Source: an uncultured Candidatus Binatia bacterium | Lineage (GTDB): Bacteria > Desulfobacterota > Binatia > UBA9968 > JAJDTQ01 | Assembly: GCA_964291295.2 (NCBI GenBank) | Contig: OZ219754.1 | Location: forward strand, 704,001 to 768,000 | Direction of reading: 5' to 3' | Length of the DNA: 64,000 nucleotides | Part shown: positions 11,886 to 38,269 of the stretch, piece by piece | How the letters are laid out: each line of letters opens with the position of its first letter | Position numbering within the stretch: the stretch's first letter is position 1 | Program-made: the position numbers and the translations under genes | Notes under the pieces: generated by a model | Told to the model about the DNA's origin: nothing | Database searches by the model: none | Seen by the model: the letters and a program-made list of their open reading frames with translations, nothing else

Positions 11886-12270
11886 ACCTTTTTGGAGGCG
11901 CGTGGAACGACACCCTGGTCGCGAATCAGCGGGGGGACTCGTTCCACGGCCTTCTCTTCGGTGGCTCCGGCCGCGACACCCTGGTAGCGGGCCGGGTCGA
12001 TCCAAACCGCCGGGTGGACGACGGCACCGGCGCGATGACCGACGGGACGAAGGGCACGGGGCCGAACCACGGCATTGAGGGGGACCTCTTCCATGGCGGT
12101 GAGGGGGAAGACACCTTCGTCCTGAACCCCGGCAGTCATGTCCATATCGATGACTACGAGCGCGTCATCCAGCAGCAGGGCGGCGCATGGAGTACCCGTG
12201 ACTTCATATATGTGACCGGTCTCAGGGTGAAGATATCGATGTCGTCCACCATCTCGAATGAGGCGGGTTG
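11885..12270 (+). pseudogene. RTX/hemolysin-type calcium-binding repeat protein fragment
   Basis: LFGGAWNDTL, LFGGSGRDTL, FHGGEGEDTFV nonapeptides with no credible start. Confidence 0.6.
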
Positions 12271-12454
12271 GTGCCTGACCGGATTTCGGATTGCAGGCCA
12301 TGTTCGCTGCGGTCGTATCCCTCCCTTGCTTATGGACAGGCGGGCGGATAGCGTAGTCAAGAGTTCGGCGCCACCGTTCCGGGACACCAGCGCCACGACA
12401 GGGGAAATTCCCGTGCCCTCGTTGACCGGCCTGACCGCATGTCCCGGCGCCGCA

Positions 12455-13065: not shown

Positions 13066-13522
13066 TAAGGCAAGGGCTCCGGAAGGGTCAATCGGAGCGT
13101 AGCATGAGACGAGAACGGGTAGACGATTCATCCCCGCGCGAGCAGGGAACCCGGCAGGCAAGGACGGAGCGCTCATCCGGGTGCCGGCATGAGTGTACGA
13201 ACATGCTCGCGTATGGCCGTGACGTCGTCCTTTCGTCCCTCTGCGATCATGTCCCGAGTGAGCACCGGAGCGGCAAACAGCGGGGCCCTTGCGACCTGAA
13301 TCCGGGTATCGGCGCCGAAGAGTTTCCGTCGGTCGAGAGCTTCGATGGCGAGTCCGACGAGGAGCGGGTTGGCGCTCCGGGCGCCGCCTGTTCCAACAAG
13401 AAGATGAGCCTGTGCAGAGTGCGGCGGCTTCCACGGGCGGGGTTCGGACCTGCCCGTGGATGTGGCCCGGTGCGGCGGCGCGTGGTAGAGTCGCCGCATC
13501 ACGCTTGAGGGAGAACCATGCC

Positions 13523-14845
13523 ATGGCCAGGACACTGAAGACCGCCCACACTTGGGAGCCGCCTGCCAGTCTTTCCAGGGACGAGCTGGTCCGGATATCC
13601 GACGAGGTCCTGTCGGAGCCCGACATCCCCTACACCGAAACCGAGGAGGTGTTCCGCATCCACGCCAACGGCATGGACTGGGACATCGGCTGCATGGTGT
13701 ACGAGCCCAGGGACGCGGCCCGGATCCCCACCGGGCCGGATGGCCACAAGCTCGGTATCTTCATGACTCACGGCGGTGCCAGCGACTGGCGCTCCATCGA
13801 GCGGCTGGCCCGGTGCTTCACCGGGAAGCGGGGCTACAAGGTGTGCAGCATGACCTACCCCGGCCGCCTCTATCTGCCGGACCCAAGCCGTGACTGGCCC
13901 GACGACACCATTCACGAAGACGGCAGCGTGCGCACCCCCATATGGCTCGACGGCGAGTTCATCGGCAGAGACGAGTACGAAGTGGTCCACGACGCCTCGT
14001 TGCGGGAAGTCTACGGCTCCCGCTCCTACGCGCGGGCAAAAACGGGCAGCAACTTCTACTACCGGATGGCGGCTTGGCCGGTGGCCTTCGAAGAAGGGAT
14101 GCTGGACATCTGCCGCCGACACCTGCCGGTGGGCGAGTACTCGGTGTTCACCCACGGCCACTCCACCGGCGGCCCCTTCAGCCACTACCTGCTGCAGCGC
14201 ATCGAGAACGGCAAGGGGCTCATGGGTATCGAAAACTCGCCCTTCGCCTTCATCTTCCGCAAGATGAGCGGCCACGACTGGCCGACCCCGTTCGACCACG
14301 TGCTGATCCGGACCTGGCGCGAACTGGCGCGCTACAAGGGCGCCGAGGTGGCGATGCAGGAAGGCGACCGCCCGCTGTACCGGCTGGCCTGGCTGATGGA
14401 GGAGATATTCGAGATGTGGGAGCAGGCCCGGCGCTTCCCGCAGTTCAAGGCCGAGAACTGGCTCCACAGCGACAGCCACCCGTGCCTCACCCAGGCCGCC
14501 AGGGTGACGGCCGAGCGCCTGAAGATGAACGCCGAGGAGACCCAGGCCCTGGTGGACCGCTATCTGGGCTACGGGCGCCCGCTTCCGGGTGCCGACGCCA
14601 GGCCCGTCCCGCCGCTCCTCTACGGCATCAACCGGTTCAGCCGGGATCACACGCCCCCGAAGTACGACAACATCGTCAAGGCCGCGTACGCCGCCATGGA
14701 CCCCGCCCCCAAGGTGCGCGTCATCGAGATCGGCACCGGCGTCCATTCCTACTGGAAGACCGAGGAAGGCCTGCCCCTGGGCGTCTGCCCTGTGGTCACC
14801 CGGATCTGGCACGACGCCGTCATGAACGGGTACTACGAGGCGTGA
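13523..14845 (+). CDS. Conserved hypothetical protein, probable alpha/beta-hydrolase fold
   Basis: HGGASD, GHSTGG nucleophile elbow, C-terminal GVHSYW; GAGGGAG upstream. Confidence 0.7.
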   Translation: MARTLKTAHTWEPPASLSRDELVRISDEVLSEPDIPYTETEEVFRIHANGMDWDIGCMVYEPRDAARIPTGPDGHKLGIFMTHGGASDWRSIERLARCFTGKRGYKVCSMTYPGRLYLPDPSRDWPDDTIHEDGSVRTPIWLDGEFIGRDEYEVVHDASLREVYGSRSYARAKTGSNFYYRMAAWPVAFEEGMLDICRRHLPVGEYSVFTHGHSTGGPFSHYLLQRIENGKGLMGIENSPFAFIFRKMSGHDWPTPFDHVLIRTWRELARYKGAEVAMQEGDRPLYRLAWLMEEIFEMWEQARRFPQFKAENWLHSDSHPCLTQAARVTAERLKMNAEETQALVDRYLGYGRPLPGADARPVPPLLYGINRFSRDHTPPKYDNIVKAAYAAMDPAPKVRVIEIGTGVHSYWKTEEGLPLGVCPVVTRIWHDAVMNGYYEA

Positions 14846-24316: not shown

Positions 24317-25134
24317 TGAGCGAACCGCTTTACGAAATGCGCGACGTCGGCACCGGCGAGGCCTCGCTGATCGAGTTGCAGGAGATCGAGAAGCACTTCG
24401 GCCCGGTCATCGCCCTGGCGGGCGTCTCGGTGGCAGTGTACGCGGGCGAGTGCCATTGTCTGCTGGGCGACAACGGCGCCGGCAAGTCCACCTTCATCAA
24501 GACCATGTCGGGGGTGCACAAGCCCACCCGCGGGCAGATCCTCATGGGCGGCCAGCCGGTGAATTTCGAAAGCCCGCGCGACGCCATGCATGCCGGCATC
24601 GCCACCGTGTACCAGGACCTGGCGATGATCCCGCTGATGTCGGTGACGCGCAACTTCTGGATGGGCCGCGAGCCTACCCGGGGGTGGGGGCCGTTCCGGT
24701 TCATCGACTTCAGGAAGGCCAACGAGGTCACCATGACCCGCATGGCCGACATGGGCATTCGCCTGCGCGAGCCCACCCAGGCTGTGGGAACCCTGTCCGG
24801 CGGCGAGCGCCAGACCGTCGCCATCGCCCGCGCCGTCTACTTCGGTGCCAGGATCCTGATCCTGGACGAACCCACGTCCGCGTTGGGAGTGCGGCAGACC
24901 TCCAACGTGCTGGCCACCATCGACCGTGTGCGCAGGACCGGCATCGGCGTGGTCTTCATCACCCACAACGTCCGCCATGCCATGGCGGTCGGAGACCGCT
25001 ACACGGTCTTGAACCGCGGCACGACCCTGGGCACGGCCCGGCGCGGCGAGATCCAGGCCGACGAGCTTCAGGACATGATGGCGGGCGGCCAGGAACTGGC
25101 CGAACTCGAAGGCTCGCTGGGCGGCACCGTGTGA
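24313..25134 (+). CDS. Sugar ABC transporter ATP-binding protein
   Basis: [22 protein letters not shown]. Confidence 0.92.
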
Positions 25135-27026
25135 AACGGACCCTGGACATCATCTCCATCGGCCGCTCGTCGGTGGATCTCTACGGCGGCCAGGTGGGCG
25201 GGCGGCTGGAAGACATGCGGTCGTTCCGCAAGTATGTCGGCGGCTCGCCCACCAATGCCGCCGCCGGCGCCGCCCGGCTCGGCCTCAAGGCCGCGGTCCT
25301 CACGCGTGTGGGCGACGAGCCCATGGGCCGCTTCATCCGCGAACAACTGCGCGCCGAAGGGGTCGACGTCCGCGGCGTGCTCACGGATCCGGAGCGCCTG
25401 ACCGCCCTGGTGCTGCTGGGCATCCGCGACCAGGAGCGGTTTCCGCTTGTCTTCTACCGCGAAAACTGTGCCGACATGGCGTTGTCGCCGGACGACATCG
25501 ACCCGGACTTCATCGCCCAGGCGCGCTGCCTGCTTGCCTCGGGCACCCACCTGTCGCATCCCCGCACCGAGGCGACCACGATGCGGGCGCTGGAGCTGGC
25601 GCGGGAATCGGGCGCGCGCACGATCCTGGATATCGACTACCGGCCGAACCTGTGGGGCCTCGCCGGCCACGGGGACGGCGAAAGCCGCTTCATCGAGTCG
25701 GCGGCCGTGACCGCCAGGCTGCAGCGCACCTTGGCACGTTTCGACGTGATCGTGGGCACCGAAGAGGAGTTTCACATCGCCGGCGGCGTCTCGGATACCA
25801 TCGCGGCGCTGGCCCGGGTCCGCGACCTCTCCGCCGCCACGCTGGTGTGCAAGCGCGGCGCCGCGGGTGCCACCGCCTTCGAGACCACCATCCCCGCGAG
25901 CCTGGAGGACGGCGTCAGCGGACCGTCCTTCACGGTCGAAGTGTACAACGTCCTGGGAGCGGGAGACGGCTTCATGGCCGGCCTGCTCAAGGGCTGGCTT
26001 TCGGGGGAGGACTGGGCCGAGACCCTGCGCATCGCCAACGCCTGCGGCGCGCTGGCGGTGTCGCGCCACGGCTGCACGCCGGCGTATCCCAGTGCCGTGG
26101 AGTTGCGCGACTTTCTGGAGAACGGGTCGTCGACGCCGGCCGTGCGGCACGATGCGCGCCTGGAGCAGCTCCACTGGGCCACCAACCGGACCCGGGCGTG
26201 GCCCCGCATGCGCGTCTTCGCCTTCGACCACCGCGCCTGGTTCGAGGCTGCCGCCAGGAACACGGCGCGCATCGGCGCATTCAAGCGCCTGTGCCTGGAG
26301 GCGGCGCTTCGCGTCGCCGACGGCCGCGACGGATACGGGATCCTGTGCGACGGCCGCCTGGGCCGCGACGCCCTCTACGCCGCGGCGGGCACGGGCCTGT
26401 GGATCGGGCGTCCGGTGGAGCGGCCCGGGACCCGGCCGCTGCGGCTGGAGATCGGTGACGACTGCGGCTCGGCGCTGGCGGAATGGCCCAGCGAACATGT
26501 GGTGAAGGTTCTCTGCTTCTACCGCCCGGACGACCCGGAGACATTGCGCGCCGACCAGGAGGCAACGGTCCGGCGGCTGGCACGGGCCGCACGGGCCAAC
26601 GGACTGGACCTTCTCGTGGAGATCGTGCCGTCGAAGTTCGGACCGGTGGACGACGCCACCACGGCCGCCGTCATCAAGCGATTCTACGCCATCGGGGTTT
26701 TTCCCGACTGGTGGAAGCTGGAGCCGATGGCCTCCGGGGCCGCCTGGGGCAAGGCCTGTGGTGCCATCGACGCTCACGATCCGCACTGCCGGGGCATCGT
26801 GGTGCTGGGCCTGGACGCTCCCTTTGAAGAGCTGCGGGAGAGCTTCCAGGCCGCCGCCAGCCACGAGCGCGTGAAAGGATTCGCCGTCGGGCGCACGATC
26901 TTCGGGGTGGCCGCGCAGGCATGGCTGGCCGGGGAGATGACCGACGGCGAAGCCGTGGCACTCATGGCCGGGAACTTCTCCAGGCTCTGCACAGCCTGGG
27001 ACGAAGCACGGAACAGGGGCGGATGA
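25131..27026 (+). CDS. iolC: 5-dehydro-2-deoxygluconokinase with C-terminal aldolase (DUF2090) domain
   Basis: [16 protein letters not shown] PfkB motif, [23 protein letters not shown]; GTG start overlaps the upstream stop. Confidence 0.92.
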
Positions 27027-27029
27027 TCC

Positions 27030-28844
27030 ATGAAAACCATCCGACTGACCGCGGCCCAGGCGCTGGTGCGTTTTCTCGGCGCACAGGCGAACGAAGACGG
27101 CGAGCGCTTCGTGGCCGGGGTCTGGGCCATCTTCGGGCACGGCAATGTCGCCGGCCTGGGCGAGGCCCTGTATCAGGCCGGTGACGCGCTGCCCACCTGG
27201 CGCGGCCACAACGAACAGGGCATGGCCCACGCGGCCATCGCCTACGCCAAGGCCCACAACCGCAAACGGGCCATGGCGGTGACCTCGTCCATCGGCCCGG
27301 GGGCCACCAACATGGTCACGGCGGCGGCGCTGGCGCATGTGAACCGCCTGCCGGTGCTGTTCCTGCCCGGCGACGTGTTCGCCAACCGGCTTCCCGACCC
27401 GGTGCTGCAACAGGTGGAGGACTTCGCCGACGGCACCGTGAGCGCCAACGACTGCTTCCGCCCCGCAAGCCGGTACTTCGACCGCATCACCCGCCCGGAG
27501 CAACTGCTGGCGGCGCTGCCGCGCGCCATGGCGACGCTCGTCGATCCGGCCGGATGCGGCCCGGTCACCCTCGCCCTGTGTCAGGACGTCCAGGCCGAGG
27601 CTTGCGACTACCCCGAAACCTTCTTCCGGCCGCGCACCTGGGTCATGCGCCGACAACGGCCCGACGCGGGCGAACTGGCGCGCGCGGCCCGGTCCCTGCG
27701 CGCGGCGCGGACACCTCTGATCGTCGCCGGCGGCGGCGTCCACTATTCCGACGCCTGCGAAACGCTGGCCGCGTTCGCGCAACGGCGCGGCATCCCCGTC
27801 GCCGAAACCCAGGCCGGGAAGGCGGCGCTGCCGTGGAGCCACCCGTGCTCGGTGGGCGCCATCGGCGTCACCGGCACCGAAAGCGCCAACACCTTGGCCC
27901 GCACCGCGGACCGGATCCTTGCGGTGGGAACCCGCTTGCAGGACTTCACCACCGGATCCCGGAGCCTGTTTCAGAATCCGGATGTCCGGCTGCTGGCCAT
28001 CAACGCGGCCGCCTTCGACGCCGCCAGGCACGACGCCCTGGCGGTGGTGGGCGACGCCCGCACGACCCTGGAGGAGCTGGATGCCGTCCTGGGCGACTGC
28101 GTCTTCGCGTTGCCGGACAAAGCACTCAAGGCCGATTGGGACCGGGCCGCCGACGCCGCCACCCGTGCGGCCGGCACCGTGCCGTCGGACGCCCAGGTGA
28201 TCGGCGCCGTCCAGCGGACCATGGCCGACAACGGCATCGTCGTGTGCGCGGCCGGCGGCCTGCCGGGCGAACTGCACAAGCTGTGGCGCTCGCCCCGGCG
28301 CGGCGACTATCACCTGGAATACGGCTACTCGTGCATGGGCTACGAGATCGCCGGCGGACTGGGCGTCAAGATGGCATGCCCCGAAGCCGACGTGGTGGTG
28401 GTGGTGGGCGACGGCTCCTACATGATGATGAACTCGGAGCTGGCCACCAGCGTCATGCTGGGCCTGAAGCTGACCGTCGTGGTTCTCGACAACCGCGGCT
28501 TCGGATGCATCGACCGGCTGCAACGCGCCACCGGCGGAGCCAGCTTCAACAACCTGCTGGACACCGCCCGGCACCAGACGCCCTCGGCCATCGATTTCGC
28601 TGCCCATGCCGCCTCCATGGGGACCCTCGCGAGCCATGTCGATGACATCCGGGGGCTGGAGGCCGCCCTGGTGGAAGCGCGCTCGGCGGACCGGACTTCG
28701 GTCATCGTCATCGACACCGATCCGCTGGCCGCCACCGCAGCCGGCGGCCACTGGTGGGACGTGGCCGTGCCCGAGGTTTCGGAGCGGGCGGAAGTGGCGG
28801 CGGCGCGCGAATCCTATGACGCCGCGCTGAGAAGACGCCCGTGA
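27030..28844 (+). CDS. iolD: 3D-(3,5/4)-trihydroxycyclohexane-1,2-dione acylhydrolase
   Basis: AIFGHGNVAG, HNEQGMAH, HLEYGYSCMGYE, GDGSY TPP motif. Confidence 0.95.
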   Translation: MKTIRLTAAQALVRFLGAQANEDGERFVAGVWAIFGHGNVAGLGEALYQAGDALPTWRGHNEQGMAHAAIAYAKAHNRKRAMAVTSSIGPGATNMVTAAALAHVNRLPVLFLPGDVFANRLPDPVLQQVEDFADGTVSANDCFRPASRYFDRITRPEQLLAALPRAMATLVDPAGCGPVTLALCQDVQAEACDYPETFFRPRTWVMRRQRPDAGELARAARSLRAARTPLIVAGGGVHYSDACETLAAFAQRRGIPVAETQAGKAALPWSHPCSVGAIGVTGTESANTLARTADRILAVGTRLQDFTTGSRSLFQNPDVRLLAINAAAFDAARHDALAVVGDARTTLEELDAVLGDCVFALPDKALKADWDRAADAATRAAGTVPSDAQVIGAVQRTMADNGIVVCAAGGLPGELHKLWRSPRRGDYHLEYGYSCMGYEIAGGLGVKMACPEADVVVVVGDGSYMMMNSELATSVMLGLKLTVVVLDNRGFGCIDRLQRATGGASFNNLLDTARHQTPSAIDFAAHAASMGTLASHVDDIRGLEAALVEARSADRTSVIVIDTDPLAATAAGGHWWDVAVPEVSERAEVAAARESYDAALRRRP

Positions 28845-29749
28845 TCCGCTACGGCACCAATCCGGTCGCCTGGTCCAACGACGACGACCCCAGCCTGGGG
28901 GGCGACATCCCGCTGGAGCGGTGTTTGAGCGACGCCAGCCGGATCGGCTTCGAGGGGATCGAGAAAGGCCGCAAGTTTCCTTCCGATGCCACGACCCTGG
29001 CAGCGACCCTCCAGCCCTACGGCCTGGCCTGCGTGTCCGGGTGGCATTCGCTGAGGCTGCTCGAACGATCCGTGGAGGAGGAAAGGGCCGCGATCCAGCC
29101 GCACCTGGATGTGCTGGCAGCGCTGGGATGCCCGGTCTGCATCGTGTGCGAGACCACCGGCGCGGTCCACCGCGATATCGACGCGCCCCTGAGCCATCGA
29201 CCGAAGCTCGCGCCATCCGGCTGGGACCGCTTCTGCGCCAACGTCGAGGCCATCGCCGCACACTGCCTCGCCCGAGGCGTGCGCCTGGCGTATCATCACC
29301 ACATGGGGACGGTGGTGGAGAGCATGGAAGAGATCGAGGCGTTCATGGCGCGCGCCGGTCCCCGCACCGGGCTGCTGCTGGACACTGGCCATGCGACCTT
29401 CGCGGGCGCCGATCCGGCAGTCCTGGCCCAGCGCTACATGGACCGCATCGTCCACATCCACGCCAAGAACGTTCGCCCCGCCATCCGGCAAAGAGCGCTC
29501 GCGGAAGGGTTGTCGTTCCTGCAGGCGGTCCGGCTCGGCGTGTTCACGGTTCCGGGGGACCGCGAGGGCGGCGTCGATTTCCCGGCGGTGCTGCGCATCG
29601 CCGCCCGCCATCACTATTCGGGCTGGCTGGTCGCCGAGGCCGAGCAGGATCCGGCGCAACGCGATCCGGTGGTCTACCAGACACTGGCGTTGAAGACACT
29701 CCGCGCCATGGCGCGGGAAGTCGGCCTGGACCAGGAGGAAGTCCATTGA
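28841..29749 (+). CDS. iolE: myo-inosose-2 dehydratase
   Basis: NPVAWSNDD, YHHHMGT, LLDTGH, VAEAEQDP. Confidence 0.94.
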   Translation: MIRYGTNPVAWSNDDDPSLGGDIPLERCLSDASRIGFEGIEKGRKFPSDATTLAATLQPYGLACVSGWHSLRLLERSVEEERAAIQPHLDVLAALGCPVCIVCETTGAVHRDIDAPLSHRPKLAPSGWDRFCANVEAIAAHCLARGVRLAYHHHMGTVVESMEEIEAFMARAGPRTGLLLDTGHATFAGADPAVLAQRYMDRIVHIHAKNVRPAIRQRALAEGLSFLQAVRLGVFTVPGDREGGVDFPAVLRIAARHHYSGWLVAEAEQDPAQRDPVVYQTLALKTLRAMAREVGLDQEEVH

Positions 29750-30555
29750 GCAGCCTGTTGCGCAAGCCGTCGGGGACGACTGGCAAGGTCATCGACATCA
29801 CGCCCGAGAACGCCGGGTGGAGGTACGTCGGTTTCGCCGTTTACGCTTTGCGGCCCGGGGAAACGGCCGGCGAAGCCACCGGGAACCGCGAGGTCATCCT
29901 GGTCATGATCGACGGAAAGGCCCGGCTGTCCTGCCCCGATGCCGACTTCGGCGTCCAGGGCCGGCGCATGAGCGTGTTCGAACAGACCCGGCCGCACGCC
30001 GTCTACATTCCCGACGGCACCTCCTGGTCCGCCCGGGCGGAGACCGACTGCACCCTCGCGGTGTGCTCGGCGCCCGGCTTCGGCGGGCACGCGGCCGGGG
30101 CCATCGATCCGGAGCGCATCCCCGTCCTGAAACGCGGCAAGGGCGCGAATACGCGCTACGTGCACCCCATCGCCATGGACGACGCCGACATCGCCGACAG
30201 CCTGCTGATCACCGAGGTGTTCACGCCCCAGGGCAACTGGTCGAGCTACCCGCCGCACCGTCATGACAGTGACCAGGGCGAGGAGATGACCTGTCTCGAA
30301 GAGACCTACTACCACCGGATCCATCCGCCCCAGGGCTTCGGCTTTCAGCGCGTCTTCACCGAAGACGGCGAACTGGACGAAACCATGGCGGTGGCCGACG
30401 GCGACACCGTGCTGGTGCCGCGCGGGCATCATCCGTGCGGTGCACCCTACGGTTACGACATGTACTATCTGAACGTCATGGCGGGTCCGAGGCGCAAGTG
30501 GCGCTTCAGGAACCACCCCGACCACGACTGGATCTTCCAGCGGGACTCGAAGTGA
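29746..30555 (+). CDS. iolB: 5-deoxy-glucuronate isomerase
   Basis: GNWSSYPPHRHD, LEETYYH, YYLNVMAGP; TTG start overlaps the iolE stop. Confidence 0.94.
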   Translation: MSSLLRKPSGTTGKVIDITPENAGWRYVGFAVYALRPGETAGEATGNREVILVMIDGKARLSCPDADFGVQGRRMSVFEQTRPHAVYIPDGTSWSARAETDCTLAVCSAPGFGGHAAGAIDPERIPVLKRGKGANTRYVHPIAMDDADIADSLLITEVFTPQGNWSSYPPHRHDSDQGEEMTCLEETYYHRIHPPQGFGFQRVFTEDGELDETMAVADGDTVLVPRGHHPCGAPYGYDMYYLNVMAGPRRKWRFRNHPDHDWIFQRDSK

Positions 30556-31751: not shown

Positions 31752-34700
31752 TCATCGCTCCGAAGATGCGTCCGTTTCGGGAAATACCTCGTCGGCGTAC
31801 TGGTTGTAGCCCAGATCCCGGACGTGGGGTTCGTTATGAAGCAGTTCACGCAAACGGGAAAGTTCCCGGGGGTCCCAGCCCATGGCGTCGGCCACTGATT
31901 CATCCCAGAGTCGGCGTACCGGGCATTCTCCGTCCCGGTACTGAGGCACCTCCATGTCCCTGGTGCGCTCCCAGCAGTCGCCCAGGATTTCCCGAATGCG
32001 GCGGTCGTTGACGTCCGGGATCTTGATGTTCCCGGCTTCCGCTGCACTGTAGGATGGAAAAATGAGCTTTTTCCCCGGAGTTCGCATGAGTTGCAGCCGT
32101 CCGGGCGTTGCGTTCAAGAATACCGATACCGCTTTTGCTTCCTGTGGGAACAGCCCGGTGACCGGCATCCAGCCGTTGCCGACGTACCGCTCGTCATCCG
32201 CGGTAGCCGCGAGACGGGCGGTACTCGTGCTCTGTCCGGCGGTAATCAGCAAGTATCCTGCTTTTTTCAGGATTTGTTCCGTTTCGGCGAAGATGCCGCC
32301 GTTACGTTCACCGGCCTCCTGGTCCCGTTTCTTTGGGATCCAGTACTCATCCGGGGCACTCCGTATGGCCCTTTGACCCTCTCCGCCCTTTGATTTGAGT
32401 ATTGGCAACCCTCCCCCAGCGCCGTCTGCTGCCGGCTCGAAAGAGCCGCGCAGCAGACGGCCGGTCGCATGAACCGACCGGCCAGCTGCCCCGAGGGGAT
32501 GCAAATCCGGATGGTTGGCGTATGTGTTGGCTGCTTCCGCCAGTTCGGGAGAACGCCAGACGGCCGGAGTCCAGTCGCCGGCCTTGATCCGCTCCTCCGG
32601 CCATTGGGAGATGCAGCCCCATCCATTTGGGATCGGCCCCAAGCCGCAACCAGTCAGGCATTGGTGCAAGTCTGCTACCTCGGCTTCGTCAACGGGGAGC
32701 CTGTCCAGATTGATGAACCGTGTGGGTGGCCTGGGGCCGCTGTGTCGCTTGGCTACGATGATGCTTTCGTTGATGCTGGTGTTCTGGCTCAGGTTGATAT
32801 TTCCCGGCTGATGGCAGGTCAGCACAGTGTGTATGTGGAACCGTTGAGCGAGGATCCGGCGTTCCTTCTGACCTGCGGTACTTGACAGGGCGATGGTGGG
32901 GTTGATCATCGTGATGATGCCGCCGGGGCGTCTTGTCATGTGTTCCGCCAGAGCAACGAAAAGCGGGCTTATGGAATTCTTGTTGCCAAGGTCTGCCAGC
33001 GGATCGTCATGGGGCATCATCCGCTCCATGGAATCGACCCGCGACCTCAGTGCTTTCTGGATTTTCTCGGAGAACTTCTCGCCCATCCTGGCCCGGTTGG
33101 TAAAGGGCGGGTTCATGATGACGATGCGGACGTTCTTAACCGCATCAATGGCGTCTTCCAGCTCGGCGTCGACGGTTTGCCATATGCTCTGCGATTCGAT
33201 GGGCGGCTCGTCGGACAAACCCAGTTGGTCACTTCTGGGAACTATCGCCTCCTGCCTCAGGAGTTCCAGAGTTCCCGCAAAGACATGGGCCGGGTTGCCG
33301 GATCGTGGGGGGGGGGGGGGGGGGGACAGACCGGGGACCATAGGGCATCAGGTGCAGACCCATTCGGCGGTAGCTGATCTCGTGGTTGCCCGCGGTCAAC
33401 TGAGCTGCCGCCAGTTGCAGTGAGACGGGGTTGATGTCCAACCCCTTGATGGTCTGTTCTACCGCCAGCTTTTGCAGGCCGGTTATCTGGCTTTCACCGG
33501 CACCCTGCTCCCGGGCCCGGCGTTTCATGTCGGCCAGTATCGCTGTCAGCAGAGTTCCGCTTCCGCAAGCCAAGTCGATGGTCTTGTGGTCTTCCCAAGT
33601 CTCGGGGTTGGTCCAGTCCTGTTCGCCGCAAGCGTCCAGGGTGAGGCGGGACGCAATGGATGCAGCCACCGGCCTGGTGAAGAAAGCCCCGTCGCTGGCC
33701 TGGTTGCCCATGACGCGATTGAAAAGCGGGCCGGCATGGTCCGCACCCATGTCGGCATAGGTTTCGGCGATACGTTCCGCTTCTGCCGTGAGGTGACGCA
33801 GCGTGCGTTCCAAGCCGATCAGCTTGCCGGTGTCTTCGATGGTTTCGATGACCTTGACTGCCGGCTCCAGCACCGGACGAAAATCGTGGCGCATGATCTG
33901 GTTCCATTCCCTGCTGATCCGCCGCACCACGTTGACATCGTTCTTGATCGTCTCCAGGTCGCTGACGTCGGAGAGCCAGCTGCCGTTGGCGATACGCTGG
34001 TGCAGCATGGCAGCGTTCATCATCATCAGGGCGGCGATGGTGCAGCCATCGGCTTGGCTCTTGCGCTTGTCTTCCTTCAAATTGTCCAGGCCGAAATGCC
34101 GATCCAGGGCGGGCTGCAAATCGTCCATCTTCAACTGATGGGCCGCCTCCTGGATGCTGGATTCCAGGATATTCAGATCCCGGACAATCCGGTTGCTGAC
34201 CAATCCGGACTTGGACAAAAGGTTCATCTTGATGGCGTTGCAATGCTCTTCCAGTCCGCTCAGCGACAACAATCGCCCGGCGTAGCGCTCGCCCTTGAGG
34301 GTTCGGCGAGCCTTGATGCGGATTCCAGCGCCCTCGTTGATCATTTTCCTGGCTTTGACCTTGGACTCCTTGATGTCCACCGCGCCCCGGGGTTCAGCCG
34401 GCTTCGGCTTGGTTCGGACGACGGTGGCCCCACGCACCTCTATGCTGCCGTCCTCGTTCTTTTTGCCGGTGATGATCTGCGCAGGCTCGAAAATCGGAGG
34501 CGGCTCCCTGACTGTTACATTTTCGGGTTCATCGTACTCGGACGGGCTTTCCGCACAGATGGTGGGCTGATCCCCATACTGTGGCTTGTTCCCGTTCCCG
34601 TATTCCGAGATCGGATAAAACTTCTTCTCGAAAAGGCTCTTTCCATTCAATACTTGCGTCACGGCTCCCTCGGCTCCCCCTGGCTGGCCCTTGTGTCCTC

Positions 34701-36876
34701 CGTACCGAATCCGTTTGTCCTCGCCGCTGGCAATGGCTACCAGAGTCTCCTGCACTTCCGGTGCCTTGGGCAGGTACAGCGTCAGGAGACTCTCCAGTTT
34801 GTCTTCGATCCGCTGGTCGTGGGCCCGCAGAGCCAAAAGGATCTGTCCCAGTTCCTTCCATCCCTCGTCCATGTTGCTGGTGCTCAGCCACTCCTCCGGG
34901 TCGGTATTCGGTGGAATCAGGATGGGGCAGATGATGTAGCCCATCTTTTTGTCCGGGGCGGTGCGCATGACCCGCCCGACGGCTTGAATTACGTCCAAGG
35001 GGCTCTTGCGAGGTTCCAGGAAGGCCACCGCATTCAATGATGGCGAGTCGGTGCCTTCGCCGAATATGCCTACGTTGATGACACCGTGGGGTTTCTCTTC
35101 GTTGGCTTCGGCCAGGCGGCGCTTGGCGTTGTCCCGGGCATTCACGTTGCTGGTGGCATCCAGATGTTCCAGGGTGTAATCAGCAGGGAACTGCCCCTCC
35201 CGATTGTTGCGCAGCCATTTAGCGAGATACTCCCTTGCGGGAGCGGACTGGAGCGCCTCGGCCATGATTTTGGACTTGTCCACCCGGTTCATGAAGGCAA
35301 TGCAGGACTCTATCGGCACACTGCCGCTGCCGTGACCCTGTGTGGCTCCGCCCATGGCCAGGACAAAGGCGGCCCCTCTCAAACCGTCGACCGCAGTCAA
35401 GGGCTTGCGACCCTTGCTGTCGGGGTTGTCGGCCAGCTGGTCGGCCAGTTTGTAGGAATCAGGGTCGTTGATGCCCAAGGCGATGATGCGGTAATCGGCC
35501 AGCCAGCCGTTCCGGACCGCCTCGACATAGCTCTTCCGATAAAGTTCGACGCCGAATGTAGTTTCATCATCCATGCTGCGGACAATCCAGTCGCTGTCTT
35601 GCTCCCGAGTGACCTTGCTGGTGTCGTAGATGCGAGGCGTCGCGGTCTGATAAACGCGGTAGATCGCTGGAAAGGCCTTGCTGTCATGGCAGAGAGTGAA
35701 ATCGCGAACCCGCTTCTCCTTCTCAGTCAAGGGGTTATGTCCGGCATTCCGCTTCCGACGCAGCCCGGCCGTGCGGTGCGCCTCATCGGCAATGAGCACC
35801 CGCGGGACGGCTCCGGCACAGCGCAGCGCCTCGGCGACACGGTGTCCGCTCTGGTAGGTTCCGAAGATGACGTTGATCCGGTGAGTGTTGCAGCCTTCCC
35901 GGATCCAGTCGGCTATTTCTTCCGGGCTGGTGGTCACCTTCCCCTTCAATTCGCTCGCGCTGACGTTGCTGTTATCAAGGGTGGGGTCATCAGCAGTGTT
36001 TCTGAAACCTTCCTTCGTGGGGTCGTAGCCGGCGGTTTCGTCTGAGCATACGGCCAGCGCCCGGAGCGGATTTTCCGCATACTGGAGATATTCCCGCCGT
36101 ATCTGGGCTACCAGCGCAATGGAGGGGCAGAGGACGATGGAAAGCTGTCCGGGTGCGGTGAGTTCTTCGACAATCCGCAGGGAGATTCGGGTCTTGCCGG
36201 TACCGCAGGGCAGGATGATCTTCCCCCGAGCCTCTCCTGCCGACTGGCCGCCCCTGCACGACGCTTCATGTTCCCTGAGTATTTGCACGCTTTGGGCGAT
36301 GGCTTCCCGTTGCATGCAGGTTTTGGTTTGCCGACGTTCTTCGTCAGCCGAGTCGAGATCGCAGTGGGGACAGTCTTCGTCGCCGGGGTTTTGCCGCTGC
36401 TGTTGCAGGTCAGCGGTGATGTTGACGATCTTGACCGGATTGTCGGTCATGGACCAGGCATTCTTGATATTGTCGCTGACCTGATTGTTTCCATTGGTAA
36501 TCAGCCAGCGTTCGGCCCAGAACGGGCCTGCGGAGGTGCTGGTGAATTTGTCGACTTCGCTCTTGTTGATCGGGTCGCCCTTTCCGCTGTCGTCAAGCTG
36601 CCGGGCTTTGCACTGGATGGCGATATGGGCGCCGTCGCTGCCGCGCCGCGCAACGGCGTCTATGCCAATGTCCTGCCTGGTGCTGTTCGGGAATCGAGAT
36701 TCCCGCTCCGGCCATTCGGACCAGCCCCAGCATTCCGAGATATCCCATTCTCTGATATGAGGTGCCGTCTCGACGGTCAACTCTTCCAACCACTTCCCGT
36801 CGGTATGTGTTAGGTTCAACTTGGCTGCGGTTCGGATAGCGGCTTCAATGATCTCTGGTGCGTTGGCGGATTGCAC
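31752..36876 (-). pseudogene. Type ISP-like restriction-modification enzyme (Mrr-like nuclease + SF2 helicase + N6-methyltransferase + putative specificity domain), frameshifted at a homopolymer
   Basis: ORF 33229..36888: DIGIDAV..AIQCK, CGTGKT, DEAH, TATP, QAVGRVMR, GAFFTR, DLACGSG. ORF 31752..33341: NPPF. The frames change within C19. Confidence 0.85.
33307..33325. repeat. G19 homopolymer (C19 on the coding strand)
   Basis: 19 consecutive G counted. Confidence 0.97.
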
Positions 36877-36889
36877 ACTCCCCTCCAAA

Positions 36890-37074: not shown

Positions 37075-37398
37075 TCAGCGCCCGGGCGTGGCGGCCAGCA
37101 CCTCGTCGAGGCTCGTTGCCACCAGCACGGCCTCCGCCCAAGCCTCCAGTTCGGAGGCCGACGCACGGCGAACCCGCTCGCCCACCGCATCCGGCACATC
37201 ACCGAAGCGCAACGCCAGTTGACGAAGAAGAAGTTCCGCCAAGGCCTGTATCCGGCCTCGTTCGATTCCCTTCTCCATTCCCTCGGCCCTTCCTTCAGCC
37301 CTTCCCTCGGCTCTTCCCTCAGCTCTTCCCTTTTCGATTCCCTTTTCGATTCCCTTTTCGATTCCCTGTTCGATCCAGGCTTGCGCGACTGTGCCCAT
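37075..37398 (-). CDS. Putative in-frame internal small protein (RpnS-type antitoxin), 107 aa
   Basis: GGGAGG-CACTG-ATG inside rpn directly before MGTVAQAWIEQG and the repeat tract. Confidence 0.6.
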   Translation of the reverse strand: MGTVAQAWIEQGIEKGIEKGIEKGRAEGRAEGRAEGRAEGMEKGIERGRIQALAELLLRQLALRFGDVPDAVGERVRRASASELEAWAEAVLVATSLDEVLAATPGR

Positions 37399-38124
37399 CA
37401 GTGCCTCCCAACGGTCCGGCTTTGTCCGGCGCAGCGACGCCTCCAGCAATGGCGGCGTCAGGTTCATGCACTCGGCCATGTAACGCACAATATGACGCTC
37501 GAACGCGCTCCCTGCAACCGGCCCGCCCGTCATCTGGTCCAGAAGATCCGTCGGTATGTCCTCGGCATATACCACCTTGAGTGCCAGAAGCCCGGCCCGC
37601 ACTTCGGGCGAGACCGACAACCGCCCTGACGCAATCTCGCCAAGGTCATGCAGCACATAGGCGAACTCCCTGACGAAAGGCTCCAACTCCCCGGGCGCGT
37701 CGATCATCCCCGGCACCGAGGGCGCCGCGGTCCAGCGGCCCCGACCGTGGTAGAAAACCAGCGGAATGATCGCCGGCAGCCGGTCCCCGCCAGCGCCATT
37801 CTCGACCTCGCGGCGCCAGATGTTGACCATGTATTTCAGGAGTTGGAGCGGCGTGTCCGCGTCGACGCGGCTCTTGTGTTCGAGCAGCACATAGAGCCGC
37901 GCATCGTGGCCGCTCCTCAGTCTCACCCGGAACAGCGCATCGCACTGGGTCCGCGCGGCGTCCTCGTCCACGAAGTGGCCATCCACCGCCTCGGGCGGGG
38001 CCTCGGGGTCGAGGAGAGCGGCGACTTCTTGCGGCAGGTATTGCGCCAGCAGCGCGGCGGCGCGGGCCGGCTCGGAGACCAGTGCCCGGAACAGCGCATC
38101 GTGCGGCGTCGTCGGAAGGCTCAC
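37075..38124 (-). CDS. Rpn family recombination-promoting nuclease / YhgA-like putative transposase (RpnL)
   Basis: PHDALFR, CDALFRV, YVLLEHKS, IIPLVFYHG, GIEK/GRAE repeats, DUF4351-like tail LLRQLALRFG. Confidence 0.9.
   Translation of the reverse strand: MSLPTTPHDALFRALVSEPARAAALLAQYLPQEVAALLDPEAPPEAVDGHFVDEDAARTQCDALFRVRLRSGHDARLYVLLEHKSRVDADTPLQLLKYMVNIWRREVENGAGGDRLPAIIPLVFYHGRGRWTAAPSVPGMIDAPGELEPFVREFAYVLHDLGEIASGRLSVSPEVRAGLLALKVVYAEDIPTDLLDQMTGGPVAGSAFERHIVRYMAECMNLTPPLLEASLRRTKPDRWEALMGTVAQAWIEQGIEKGIEKGIEKGRAEGRAEGRAEGRAEGMEKGIERGRIQALAELLLRQLALRFGDVPDAVGERVRRASASELEAWAEAVLVATSLDEVLAATPGR
37260..37376. repeat. 12-bp coding tandem repeats (GIEK x3, GRAE x4, GMEK, GIER)
   Basis: TTTTCGATTCCC copies and related 12-mers read directly. 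Confidence 0.9.
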
Positions 38125-38269
38125 CGGGCAGGTTCCCCGGCGTCTTCGGGAGGTTTCCGACGGACATCCCGCTCGCGGGCCGGAAGAAGAAGGGCGTTGG
38201 ACATGGCGGCACCCGACGCCGGATAACATCGGCTCCGCAACGGCTGGCGCCTGCCCCGGGGATAGGCCG

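Follow-up and report, generated by a model that had tools for sequence, protein, structure and literature searches.

The split gene and its homopolymer tract

The window, that is, the whole stretch of 64,000 bases analysed here, carries on its minus strand a split Type ISP-like nuclease-helicase-methyltransferase gene (31752..36888), delimited from the list of open reading frames (ORFs) and by tblastn with an intact homolog. Two minus-strand ORFs make up this gene: an upstream ORF of 1219 aa (33229..36888), which holds the nuclease, the helicase, a middle region and the N-terminal half of the methyltransferase (MTase) with motifs X and I, and a downstream ORF of 529 aa (31752..33341), which holds MTase motif IV (NPPF) and a C-terminal DNA-recognition-like region and shows 47–66% identity over its full length to 44 loci. 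The two overlap at a homopolymer (33307..33325), the frameshift point and putative slippage switch, which is assembled as an unbroken G19 on the plus strand, or C19 on the minus (coding) strand, and is bordered on the plus strand by t at 33306 and a at 33326. In the run census, no G/C run of the window other than this tract reaches 7; the longest others measure 6 (five G runs and five C runs) and none has a length of 7–18, and the tract is therefore far off the window's own run-length distribution. An intragenic repeat so far above background (C19 against a maximum of 6 in 64 kb) is a trait of contingency loci.

When the intact homolog P0010 is aligned by tblastn, its residues 1–1169 fall in one frame and 1173–1678 in the next; the two frames part at the C19 tract, and there is no second break across the split gene. 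The tract is thus confirmed as the sole lesion in an otherwise intact gene of ~1,707 aa, with both flanking frames intact, as had been claimed when the sequence was first read by itself. Codon reading also bears out the rule proposed at that time, that any run length divisible by 3 fuses both frames: at C18 they join, and the product would read ...MPYGP-RSV-PPPPPP-RSGNPAHVFA-GTLELL.... As assembled, the upstream ORF stops 25 codons past the six prolines coded by the tract. The C18 fusion would measure 1711 aa from TTG at 36888 or 1707 aa from GTG at 36876, and the latter is likely the true start, because homolog N-termini match from residue 5.

Domain architecture of the encoded enzyme

The features described here all lie on the minus strand. 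At the N-terminus, an Mrr-type PD-(D/E)xK nuclease domain (36400..36759; Pfam Mrr_cat_2, E 3e-14) aligns with the nuclease of LlaBIII, including the GIDAV and IQCK positions (phmmer against 4xqk_A, from residue 53). It is followed by an SF2 helicase-like ATPase (34939..36315), recognized by Pfam ResIII and Helicase_C and by the motifs GTGKT, DEAH, TATP and QAVGRVMR. The upstream ORF matches LlaBIII (4xqk) with E 1.8e-49 and LlaGI with E 1.2e-47, over residues 53/219–708, and the PADLOC profile REase_MTase_IIG PDLC03597 is matched at positions 43–650 (E 7e-98), its positions 650–1646 remaining unmatched. Judged by sequence, the Type ISP traits of an N-terminal Mrr-like nuclease and an SF2 motor homologous to those of LlaBIII and LlaGI are thus present.

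Between helicase and MTase lies a middle region (33739..34764, ~residues 709–1050), which sits where the coupler of a Type ISP enzyme would. It has no match in Pfam or in PDB sequences. A model of residues 640–1100 reached only middling confidence (pLDDT 70, pTM 0.43), and a PDB fold search with it returned no match at E<=0.001 and none to 4xqk.

The MTase begins with motifs X and I (33556..33690; GAFFTR at 33673–33690 and DLACGSG at 33556–33576), whose residues are invariant among 42 homologs, and continues past the tract with the catalytic motif IV (33102..33113), identified from the downstream ORF translation, whose residues N221 P222 P223 F224 do not vary in alignment A1; the three motifs follow one another as X, I, IV. 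The sequence-only reading had assigned an Mrr-like nuclease, an SF2 helicase and motifs X and I to the upstream ORF and NPPF to the downstream one, and all of these were recovered.

A model of the MTase with its C-terminal module, built from a 66%-identical relative (pLDDT 81, pTM 0.84), matches MTase plus recognition-domain proteins along its whole length, the best being CamA and M.BseCI (PDB 7lni, 7qw6; E 3e-18, TMq 0.56, TMt 0.67, ~660 columns). Because of these fold matches, the C-terminal half looks like a gamma-class adenine MTase with its own DNA-recognition domain, and the model indicates that a gamma-class N6-adenine MTase and a recognition domain are present in one chain. LlaBIII comes only at rank 47 of this fold search (E 1.2e-10, TMq 0.40), after CamA, BpuSI, BrxX/PglX and M.BseCI, and neither phmmer nor the PADLOC profile found sequence similarity to LlaBIII or LlaGI past residue 708. 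An MTase and target recognition domain (TRD) of the LlaGI/LlaBIII type specifically therefore seem to be absent, in agreement with the earlier impression that the C-terminal region is unlike the TRD of those enzymes. The best explanation of these sequence features is that the gene product would be a single-polypeptide ATP-dependent restriction-modification (R-M) enzyme, composed of nuclease, translocase, long linker, MTase and C-terminal recognition module.

The loop that carries the tract

Homolog alignment places the C19 tract in a loop between the conserved MPYGP and GTLELL (33258..33348, minus strand), which in the predicted model of a relative forms a beta-hairpin turn. This loop measures 58 nt in the window; in the 49 related loci from which it was recovered it measures 30 nt in 44, 21 nt in four and 24 nt in one, and its longest G/C run is 5. 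All 10 loop residues of the homologs are kept in the window and 9 are additional, and the flanks of the tract are coding and colinear with homologs.

No long run was found at this loop in any of the 49 loci (0/49), and a pattern scan of 185,579 species-representative genomes for a run at this position gave no hits. The sole homolog support for a tract at the window's own position comes from P0004, an intact protein that has PPPPP at the same loop, seen at the protein level only and not sister to the window gene in the tree. The check proposed earlier, to look for a C tract in homologs at this position, thus turned up none in related loci, but elsewhere in the gene long G/C runs occupy many positions across the family.

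G/C runs across the gene family

Across 58 family loci, 12 G/C runs of 10–19 nt occur in 287 kb of gene sequence and 4 in the flanks (binomial p=1.7e-4), although the flanks, at 712 kb, comprise 2.5 times as much DNA; run density in the gene is ~7 times that of the flanks. The intragenic runs occupy 8 loop positions in 10 genomes of 5 phyla, the reading frame shifts precisely where the run lies in 9 of these 10 run-bearing loci, and in six of them (L024, L046, L051, L052, L055 and L060) the run or runs are the sole lesion. A survey of N-terminal fragments at the protein level added six more alleles that are truncated at a run of Gly or Pro, new sites included. Several family hosts carry sponge-symbiont genus names in their records.

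Several sites are shared between species with different run lengths. L024 has G16, out of frame, where L041 has G19, in frame and read as a GGGGGG loop; L052 has C10 where L055 has C14; and L050 has G14 where L055 has G12. L051 and L060 share a site with G16 in both. At the position of G12 in L055, its sister L052 shows GGAGAGGGG. Run-less relatives at five sites mostly have a single loop length per site (27, 30, 33, 54 or 39 nt), and no G/C run in these loops exceeds 2–5 nt; L044 has an intermediate, G7. In-frame cases are the PPPPP of P0004, L041 and the G11 of L051. Ten run-bearing alleles are out of frame and 3 in frame, a ratio compatible with random lengths and with plain inactivation alike.

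The runs were found in 10 of 37 long-read-looking assemblies and in none of 21 short-read-looking ones (Fisher p=0.0095), the class having been judged from name and contig size, and the family's runs rest on one class of sequencing technology. This one-sidedness speaks in favour of a sequencing or assembly artefact, either the poly-G of two-colour chemistry or a false join, a possibility already raised when the sequence was first read. Short-read assemblies may, however, simply break where such a run occurs, which could explain their absence from that class; the gene is cut by a contig end in 8 of the 21 short-read-looking assemblies. Both flanks of the window tract follow the homologs residue for residue and lack nothing, runs recur at identical protein positions in assemblies of different species, a run stands in for a G-rich seed in sister alleles, and runs always lie in variable loops, the in-frame ones coding Gly or Pro loops. 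An artefact of either kind is hardly credible.

A subtler error concerns length. In long-read consensus sequences, homopolymer length is the main leftover error, and the window's 3.65 Mb contig hints at a long-read assembly; 19 and 18 differ by a single base. The true length could be 18 and the gene intact; on this account, the tract is really C18 or C21, the frameshift is a consensus error and the run codes a tolerated poly-proline loop, of which P0004 offers an existing in-frame version. However, nine of the ten run-bearing relatives, from separate assemblies, are out of frame too, which would demand an implausible miscall rate of 90%. From loop lengths, 5 of 8 runs need a correction of -1 and 3 need +1, and these opposite directions disfavour a one-directional length-calling error. 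A simple miscall is thus distinctly unlikely, and even C18 would stay hypermutable, so that such an error would affect the current state, not the mechanism.

The runs might instead mark a dead or dying gene, in which an unneeded R-M gene under weak indel repair underwent accidental runaway expansion with no adaptive switching. Some form of breakage affects about 14 of the 58 loci, in part through lesions unrelated to runs: L037 has three run-less frameshifts, in-frame stops interrupt L013 and L010, and a further, second lesion is present in L050 and in L005. N- and C-terminal fragments number in the hundreds (403 and 374 in two surveys), and most of the N-terminal fragments listed end without a run (7 of 120 flagged for a terminal run, 113 unflagged); the excess of out-of-frame alleles (10 of 13) points the same way. 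Against this, neutral expansion would not give the enrichment of runs over flanks, the run is the sole lesion in the window as well as in the six loci named above, in-frame runs exist, and shared-site runs persist between species at dS ~1.1–1.4. The dN/dS of broken-allele pairs (0.09–0.23) resembles that of intact pairs (0.11–0.29), so that purifying selection has acted on the broken alleles too through most of their past. Homopolymers of 10–19 nt are physically unstable through slippage, which makes a permanent off state unlikely whatever the origin of the run. Simple decay is accordingly an unlikely account.

A putative slippage switch

The reading that we favour, and regard as probable, is that the locus encodes a slippage-driven, phase-variable single-chain R-M enzyme in a family that repeatedly evolves such switches. 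The C19 tract, an insertion into a beta-hairpin loop at the MTase surface, would act as a hypermutable switch, whose run length would be altered by slipped-strand mispairing at replication. A length divisible by 3 would yield the full enzyme of ~1,707 aa with a poly-proline loop; other lengths, the assembled 19 included, would end translation soon after the run-encoded prolines. In this off state the catalytic NPPF and the recognition module would be missing, and it is therefore proposed that methylation and targeted restriction would both be lost. Slippage in vivo, its reversibility, the loss of both activities when off and any benefit are what we infer here.

The locus is read as one case of a habit shared across the family, since G/C runs of 10–19 nt have arisen in many loops of this gene among relatives from at least five phyla. 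Within the family, species can differ in run length at a shared site, with one in frame and the other out of frame, which is another trait of contingency loci; together with the many sites and the enrichment in genes, this forms a pattern that fits such loci. The idea of a phase-variable R-M system, put forward from the window's letters, gains support from this comparison.

Expression by slippage deserves separate consideration, since transcriptional slippage on homopolymers is documented in the portions of the literature at hand (PMC6260861, PMC4256274, PMC5009743). Polymerase stutter or a +1 shift on CCC codons could provide constitutive low-level enzyme with no DNA switching, and the downstream frame is indeed +1 relative to the upstream one, with a run of CCC codons as the shift site. 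However, the relatives require both shift directions, at G and at C runs, and therefore no single programmed mechanism fits. We give this account little credence, and slippage in expression would add to slippage in DNA rather than replace it.

A broader claim falls just short of what we would call probable, namely that a mobile Type ISP-like family in at least five phyla of uncultured bacteria has gained G/C switches at a dozen loop positions by repeated, independent origins. Run-bearing alleles may also have spread by horizontal transfer. If the broader claim is true, whole communities in host-associated environmental consortia would use random on/off switching of motor-driven restriction and of genome-wide adenine methylation as a strategy, and such switching would be no speciality of small-genome pathogens.

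Comparison with known systems

That repeats drive phase variation of R-M systems is well established. Surveys of it, as far as the accessible parts of these sources go, concern Type I and Type III systems and a single Type IIG one, for the most part from cultured pathogens. A search of open-access papers and preprints found no report of repeat phase variation in a helicase-bearing single-chain enzyme, of phase variation of LlaGI or LlaBIII, or of repeat phase variation of R-M in sponge-associated or other uncultured symbionts. If confirmed, the phase-variable reading would add new lineages and a new enzyme architecture to the known range of contingency loci, and would offer a natural case of restriction and modification switching together in one polypeptide; one would then have to ask how a cell lives through switch-on while its chromosome is still unmethylated. 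Annotators would also have reason for caution, in that a "pseudogene" broken at a long G/C run in a metagenome assembled from long reads may be a working switch. The family comparison names the sites and genomes at which reads could be examined for this.

One of the closest known systems is Cj0031c of Campylobacter jejuni NCTC11168, whose switch is reportedly an intragenic poly-G run. Like the present gene, in which phase variation is putative, it joins endonuclease and methyltransferase in one gene, and it is described, in the part of the source available, as a phase-variable Type IIG R-M system whose switching changes site-specific adenine methylation and phage restriction (PMC4889913). It lacks a helicase or translocase and belongs to a cultured host-adapted pathogen, whereas the window family has a Type ISP-type motor, occurs in uncultured bacteria of at least five phyla and carries runs at many positions. 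In phasevarions, according to the sections consulted, simple-sequence repeats in Type III mod and Type I hsd genes switch the methyltransferase on and off (PMC5909438, PMC7383803); those systems are multi-subunit and have been surveyed mainly in pathogens, whereas here one tract would switch restriction and modification in one chain.

Among single-chain enzymes, LlaGI and LlaBIII (PDB 5ffj, 4xqk) share the order of nuclease, SF2 ATPase, methyltransferase and recognition module. Homology to them is, however, confined to residues 53–708, the middle region is without a fold match, and the MTase and C-terminal module described here lie nearer to CamA, M.BseCI, BpuSI and BrxX. In Helicobacter pylori, the Type ISP gene of the cluster HP0667-HP0669 / JHP0612-0613 is split by frameshifts stated, in the passages available, not to be due to sequence repeats, and its C-terminal methyltransferase and specificity part can work alone when expressed (PMC3936762). 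The break here, unlike the one described there, is a 19-nt homopolymer inside the methyltransferase, and therefore neither fragment holds a complete catalytic domain. CamA of Clostridioides difficile and M.BseCI resemble the MTase and C-terminal module in fold, at only 11–13% sequence identity, and unlike the window enzyme they are stand-alone methyltransferases without nuclease or motor.

A homopolymeric run as the single lesion of the gene

On the plus strand, positions 33307-33325 are all G, flanked by t and a; read on the minus strand, which carries the gene, this is C19. Tandem Repeats Finder likewise lists it, with period 1 and 19 copies, and the 64,000-base window holds no second G or C run of at least 7, only five G6 and five C6 and none of length 7-18. 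At the run, two minus-strand ORFs overlap, an upstream one of 1219 aa (33229..36888) and a downstream one of 529 aa (31752..33341). Residues 1-1169 of an intact homolog align in the first frame and residues 1173-1678 in the next, with no further break. By codon reading, the frames are joined at any run length divisible by 3; with C18, the protein would have 1711 aa if it starts at the TTG at 36888 and 1707 aa if it starts at the GTG at 36876, the position at which homolog N-termini begin. The run is genuine, its length is far greater than chance would give, and nothing else disrupts a gene that is otherwise conserved. The sequence-only reading, which had described the ORFs, their motifs and domains, the run as single lesion and the divisible-by-3 rule, proved right in every detail of sequence.

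The encoded enzyme

Pfam places Mrr_cat_2 at residues 44-163 of the upstream ORF, ResIII at 192-418 and Helicase_C at 556-643, and the helicase motifs GTGKT, DEAH, TATP and QAVGRVMR are seen. The best matches among solved structures are LlaBIII (4xqk; E 1.8e-49, residues 53-708) and LlaGI (5ffj; E 1.2e-47), to our knowledge the two characterised enzymes of Type ISP, in which nuclease, motor and methyltransferase share one chain. The PADLOC single-chain restriction-methyltransferase profile was matched at positions 43-650 of 1646 (E 7e-98), with nothing beyond. Of the methyltransferase motifs, X (GAFFTR) and I (DLACGSG) precede the run and IV (NPPF) follows it. The downstream ORF has no sequence match in the PDB and, against Pfam, gives only Eco57I, below threshold.

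The methyltransferase and C-terminal module was modelled for a relative, L052, in which this part is intact and shares 66% identity with the window, from an alignment of 42 homologs (pLDDT 81, pTM 0.84). Its best PDB fold match is CamA (E 3e-18, TMq 0.56, TMt 0.67, ~660 columns), followed among the top matches by BpuSI, BrxX/PglX and M.BseCI. Because the model matches these proteins best, and LlaBIII only at rank 47 (E 1.2e-10, TMq 0.40), the C-terminal half is predicted to combine a gamma-class adenine methyltransferase with a recognition domain of its own and to represent a subtype different from that of LlaBIII and LlaGI; the fold ranking agrees with the earlier suspicion that this region is unlike theirs. 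The ~350 residues between helicase and methyltransferase yielded a model of middling confidence (pLDDT 70, pTM 0.43), with which a fold search found no significant match. Overall, the enzyme is Type ISP-like, with a methyltransferase module that is not of the LlaGI kind. In alignment A1, two C-terminal length classes are present in the family, and about half of the relatives (the 1,780-1,815 aa forms) carry an additional conserved C-terminal domain of ~100 aa, which is absent from the window's gene.

Distribution of the family

A search with residues 700-1219 recovered 1571 proteins at E<=0.001 among 7998 scored candidates, and the best 120 of the 1571 are 62-69% identical and mostly 1,700-1,815 aa long. 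Scanning one genome per species gave 68 loci, 58 of them in the family (L001-L057 and L060), in metagenome-assembled genomes labelled Chloroflexota, Pseudomonadota, Actinomycetota, Latescibacterota, Gemmatimonadota, Rhodothermota, Thermodesulfobacteriota, Verrucomicrobiota and others, several of which bear the names of sponge-symbiont genera such as the acidimicrobial Candidatus Poriferisodalis. Gene G+C follows flank G+C (r=0.82, 43 full-length loci), and a tblastn search of plasmids with the downstream ORF found no family member, only three weak matches of 23-28% identity. One genome holds two diverged copies of the gene, L040 and L044, on contig OZ251484.1.

The loop at the run

Homologs have 10 residues between the conserved MPYGP and GTLELL, and among 49 recovered loci, 44 have a loop of 30 nt, four one of 21 nt and the last one of 24 nt. 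The window's loop is 58 nt long and keeps all ten usual residues (RSGNPAHVFA), placed after RSV and six prolines. The loop forms a beta-hairpin turn in the model of a relative, and the intact related protein P0004 (1,719 aa) has PPPPP in the same loop, in a similar 8-residue insertion. A scan with a pattern that by eye fits the window's sequence (MPYGP codons, a C run of at least 9, GTLE codons) gave 0 matches in 185,579 species genomes, all other than the window's own. Alignment of homologs, which the sequence-only reading had proposed as a check, did not bear out a conserved tract at this site, where the longest G or C run among the 49 loci is 5. Long runs do lie elsewhere in the gene, at 10 of the 58 family loci.

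Runs at other sites in related genes

Within the gene, these loci have a total of 12 runs of G or C that are 10-19 nt long; positions are given here in the numbering of the intact homolog P0010. Out of frame are C15 at ~175 in L046, G16 at ~331 in both L051 and L060, C10 in L052 and C14 in L055 at ~380, G14 in L050 and G12 in L055 at ~565, G12 at ~1295 in L005, C11 at ~1362 in L047 and G16 at ~1390 in L024, whereas G11 at ~240 in L051 and G19 at ~1390 in L041 are in frame. Runs of at least 10 number 12 in 287 kb of gene versus 4 in 712 kb of flanks (58 loci, binomial p=1.7e-4). In 9 of the 10 run-bearing loci, a run marks the exact point at which the frame shifts; a run is the sole lesion in L024, L046, L051, L052 and L060, and two runs are in L055. 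For the eight runs in which the needed correction was worked out, it is -1 in five and +1 in three.

Run-free relatives mostly show one loop length per site at five of the sites (27, 30, 33, 54 or 39 nt), and their longest stretch of G or C is 2-5 nt; the remaining run sites behave in the same way. At the 1390 site, L044 has G7 and L040 has G5, as against G16 in L024, which is one base out of frame, and G19 in L041, which is in frame with a GGGGGG loop. L052 carries GGAGAGGGG at the site of G12 in its sister L055, a pair that illustrates the growth of a run out of a G-rich seed.

Several further features accompany these loci. In L047, the C11 lies inside an insertion of ~103 nt (~12215-12322), at a loop that is 36 nt long in 32 of 38 recovered loci. 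L046 also has an inverted pair, C15 at 13108-13122 and G15 at 13186-13200, 63 nt apart and intergenic between the end of the restriction-modification (R-M) gene and a convergent 161-aa ORF. A G22 (14593-14614) is found ~1.3 kb downstream of the R-M gene in L024, in a 288-aa minus-strand ORF with no Pfam match. In L040, the neighbour immediately upstream of the R-M gene is a minus-strand SBP_bac_5 gene, encoding an extracellular solute-binding protein, with a C14 (7290-7303; G14 on the coding strand) ~100 codons into it; it is a possible second contingency gene of that genome.

Phylogeny, selection and decay

In a tree of a run-free segment, the run-bearing genes are scattered, and in its acidimicrobial clade four of five members have runs, which occupy three different sites. 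The window clusters with L052 and L055 at an SH-aLRT of 92, short of the tool's star threshold, within a 17-row clade of support 98, which also includes P0004, though not as the window's sister. The comparative evidence shows the window to be one case of a family-wide, multi-phylum pattern.

Nei-Gojobori dN/dS for broken pairs is 0.094 for L052-L055 (dS 1.36), 0.17 for L046-L047 and 0.23 for L051-L060, and 0.11-0.29 for five intact pairs; dS is near saturation in several pairs, which makes the values rough, and none approaches 1. Broken alleles have therefore stayed functional for most of the time since they diverged, a pattern that fits reversible or recent switching rather than old pseudogenes. 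Decay of another kind is also present: L037 has three frameshifts without runs, L013 and L010 have in-frame stops, and L005 and L050 have extra lesions; the homopolymer-free breaks in L037, L013 and L010 could be real decay or assembly errors. Ten alleles are out of frame (nine loci and the window) and three in frame (L041, the G11 of L051, and P0004), a ratio near the 2:1 expected for random lengths, which alone does not separate switching from inactivation.

Assembly class and fragment proteins

Run-bearing loci make up 10 of 37 long-read-looking assemblies and 0 of 21 short-read-looking ones (Fisher p=0.0095), as classed from record names and contig sizes. An ascertainment effect is a plausible source of this bias, and a contig end cuts the gene in 8 of the 21 short-read-looking loci. 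These ends were considered as evidence for runs and rejected: none is a homopolymer, and they lie in conserved stretches. L018 ends (11527) 5 codons before the MPYGP loop, inside such a stretch, and the ends of L019 and L022, both in the conserved ADMGADHAGPLF region, are no more than ~20 nt apart; the three are probably assembly breaks at sequence common to several community members. As to the window's own run, the assembled 19 could truly be 18.

Fragment proteins add further alleles. Among the best 120 of 374 N-terminal fragments, a script flagged 7 with a run of at least 4 Gly or Pro where homology ends, and P0347 was added by eye; P0335, P0295 and the unflagged P0274 were counted as the same alleles as L051, L055 and L052, respectively. 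Additional run-end alleles lie at ~331 (P0331, P0347, P0353), ~419 (P0346) and ~489 (P0330), and P0324 has poly-Pro at ~565. The C-terminal fragment P0211 starts with PPPP at ~775, the only such N-terminus among 120 C-terminal fragments, whose starts are uninformative because gene callers begin after the run. The other 113 of the best 120 N-terminal fragments have no Gly or Pro run at their end; contig ends probably truncate many of them, and in many the tail is out of frame, which means that breakage of other kinds also affects the family.

A candidate switch and its precedents

Slipped-strand mispairing at the C19 run would change its length, with in-frame lengths yielding the full enzyme and other lengths ending translation 25 codons after six run-encoded prolines. 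The truncated product would retain nuclease, motor and the half of the methyltransferase that binds AdoMet, and would lose the catalytic NPPF motif and the recognition module. Because motor loading in Type ISP enzymes (LlaGI, LlaBIII) needs target recognition by the methyltransferase-TRD part, both restriction and methylation would presumably be lost in the off state. In addition, transcriptional stuttering or a +1 ribosomal shift on CCC codons could let some full-length product leak. Phase variation is defined by length variation within a population; on the comparative evidence, a slippage switch is probably the best explanation of the run.

The closest precedent is Cj0031c of Campylobacter jejuni, a phase-variable Type IIG enzyme encoded by a single gene, whose switching alters both phage restriction and methylation (PMC4889913). 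Surveys of phase variation in Type III and Type I systems are extensive (PMC5909438, PMC7383803). The Type ISP cluster HP0667-0669 of H. pylori is split by frameshifts which, according to its authors, do not stem from repeats (PMC3936762), and the relevant sections of two reviews mention Type ISP without a link to phase variation (PMC12707154, PMC10073500). Searches of open-access papers and preprints turned up no account of repeat-driven switching, either for a Type ISP-like enzyme or for symbionts of sponges.

Genomic surroundings

G+C is 0.59-0.61 across the gene's stretch and 0.69 at lower coordinates; on the other side it is 0.62-0.64 as far as 40 kb and 0.69 past that point. Directly upstream, adjoining the start of the R-M gene, lies a minus-strand YhgA-like Transposase_31 / DUF4351 gene (37075-38229), which carries 12-nt tandem repeats at 37256-37374, ~4 copies each of two units. 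Over 32-38 kb, G+C is ~0.59-0.62, compared with 0.69 on either side (below 32 kb, above 40 kb), and on this basis the pair could be a small acquired island. The window's R-M gene is accompanied by neither a separate methyltransferase nor a partner gene, and Rfam has no match in the window. A conserved neighbour or partner was rejected, as the YhgA-like gene has no counterpart beside any related locus and neither flank of the window resembles any of these loci. On the other side of the R-M gene are GFO/IDH/MocA and KduI/IolB metabolic genes. A 1397-aa minus-strand ORF without Pfam match (25068-29261) overlaps plus-strand ORFs there, one of which has a KduI/IolB domain (28921-30555), and most likely reflects high-G+C DNA rather than a real gene.
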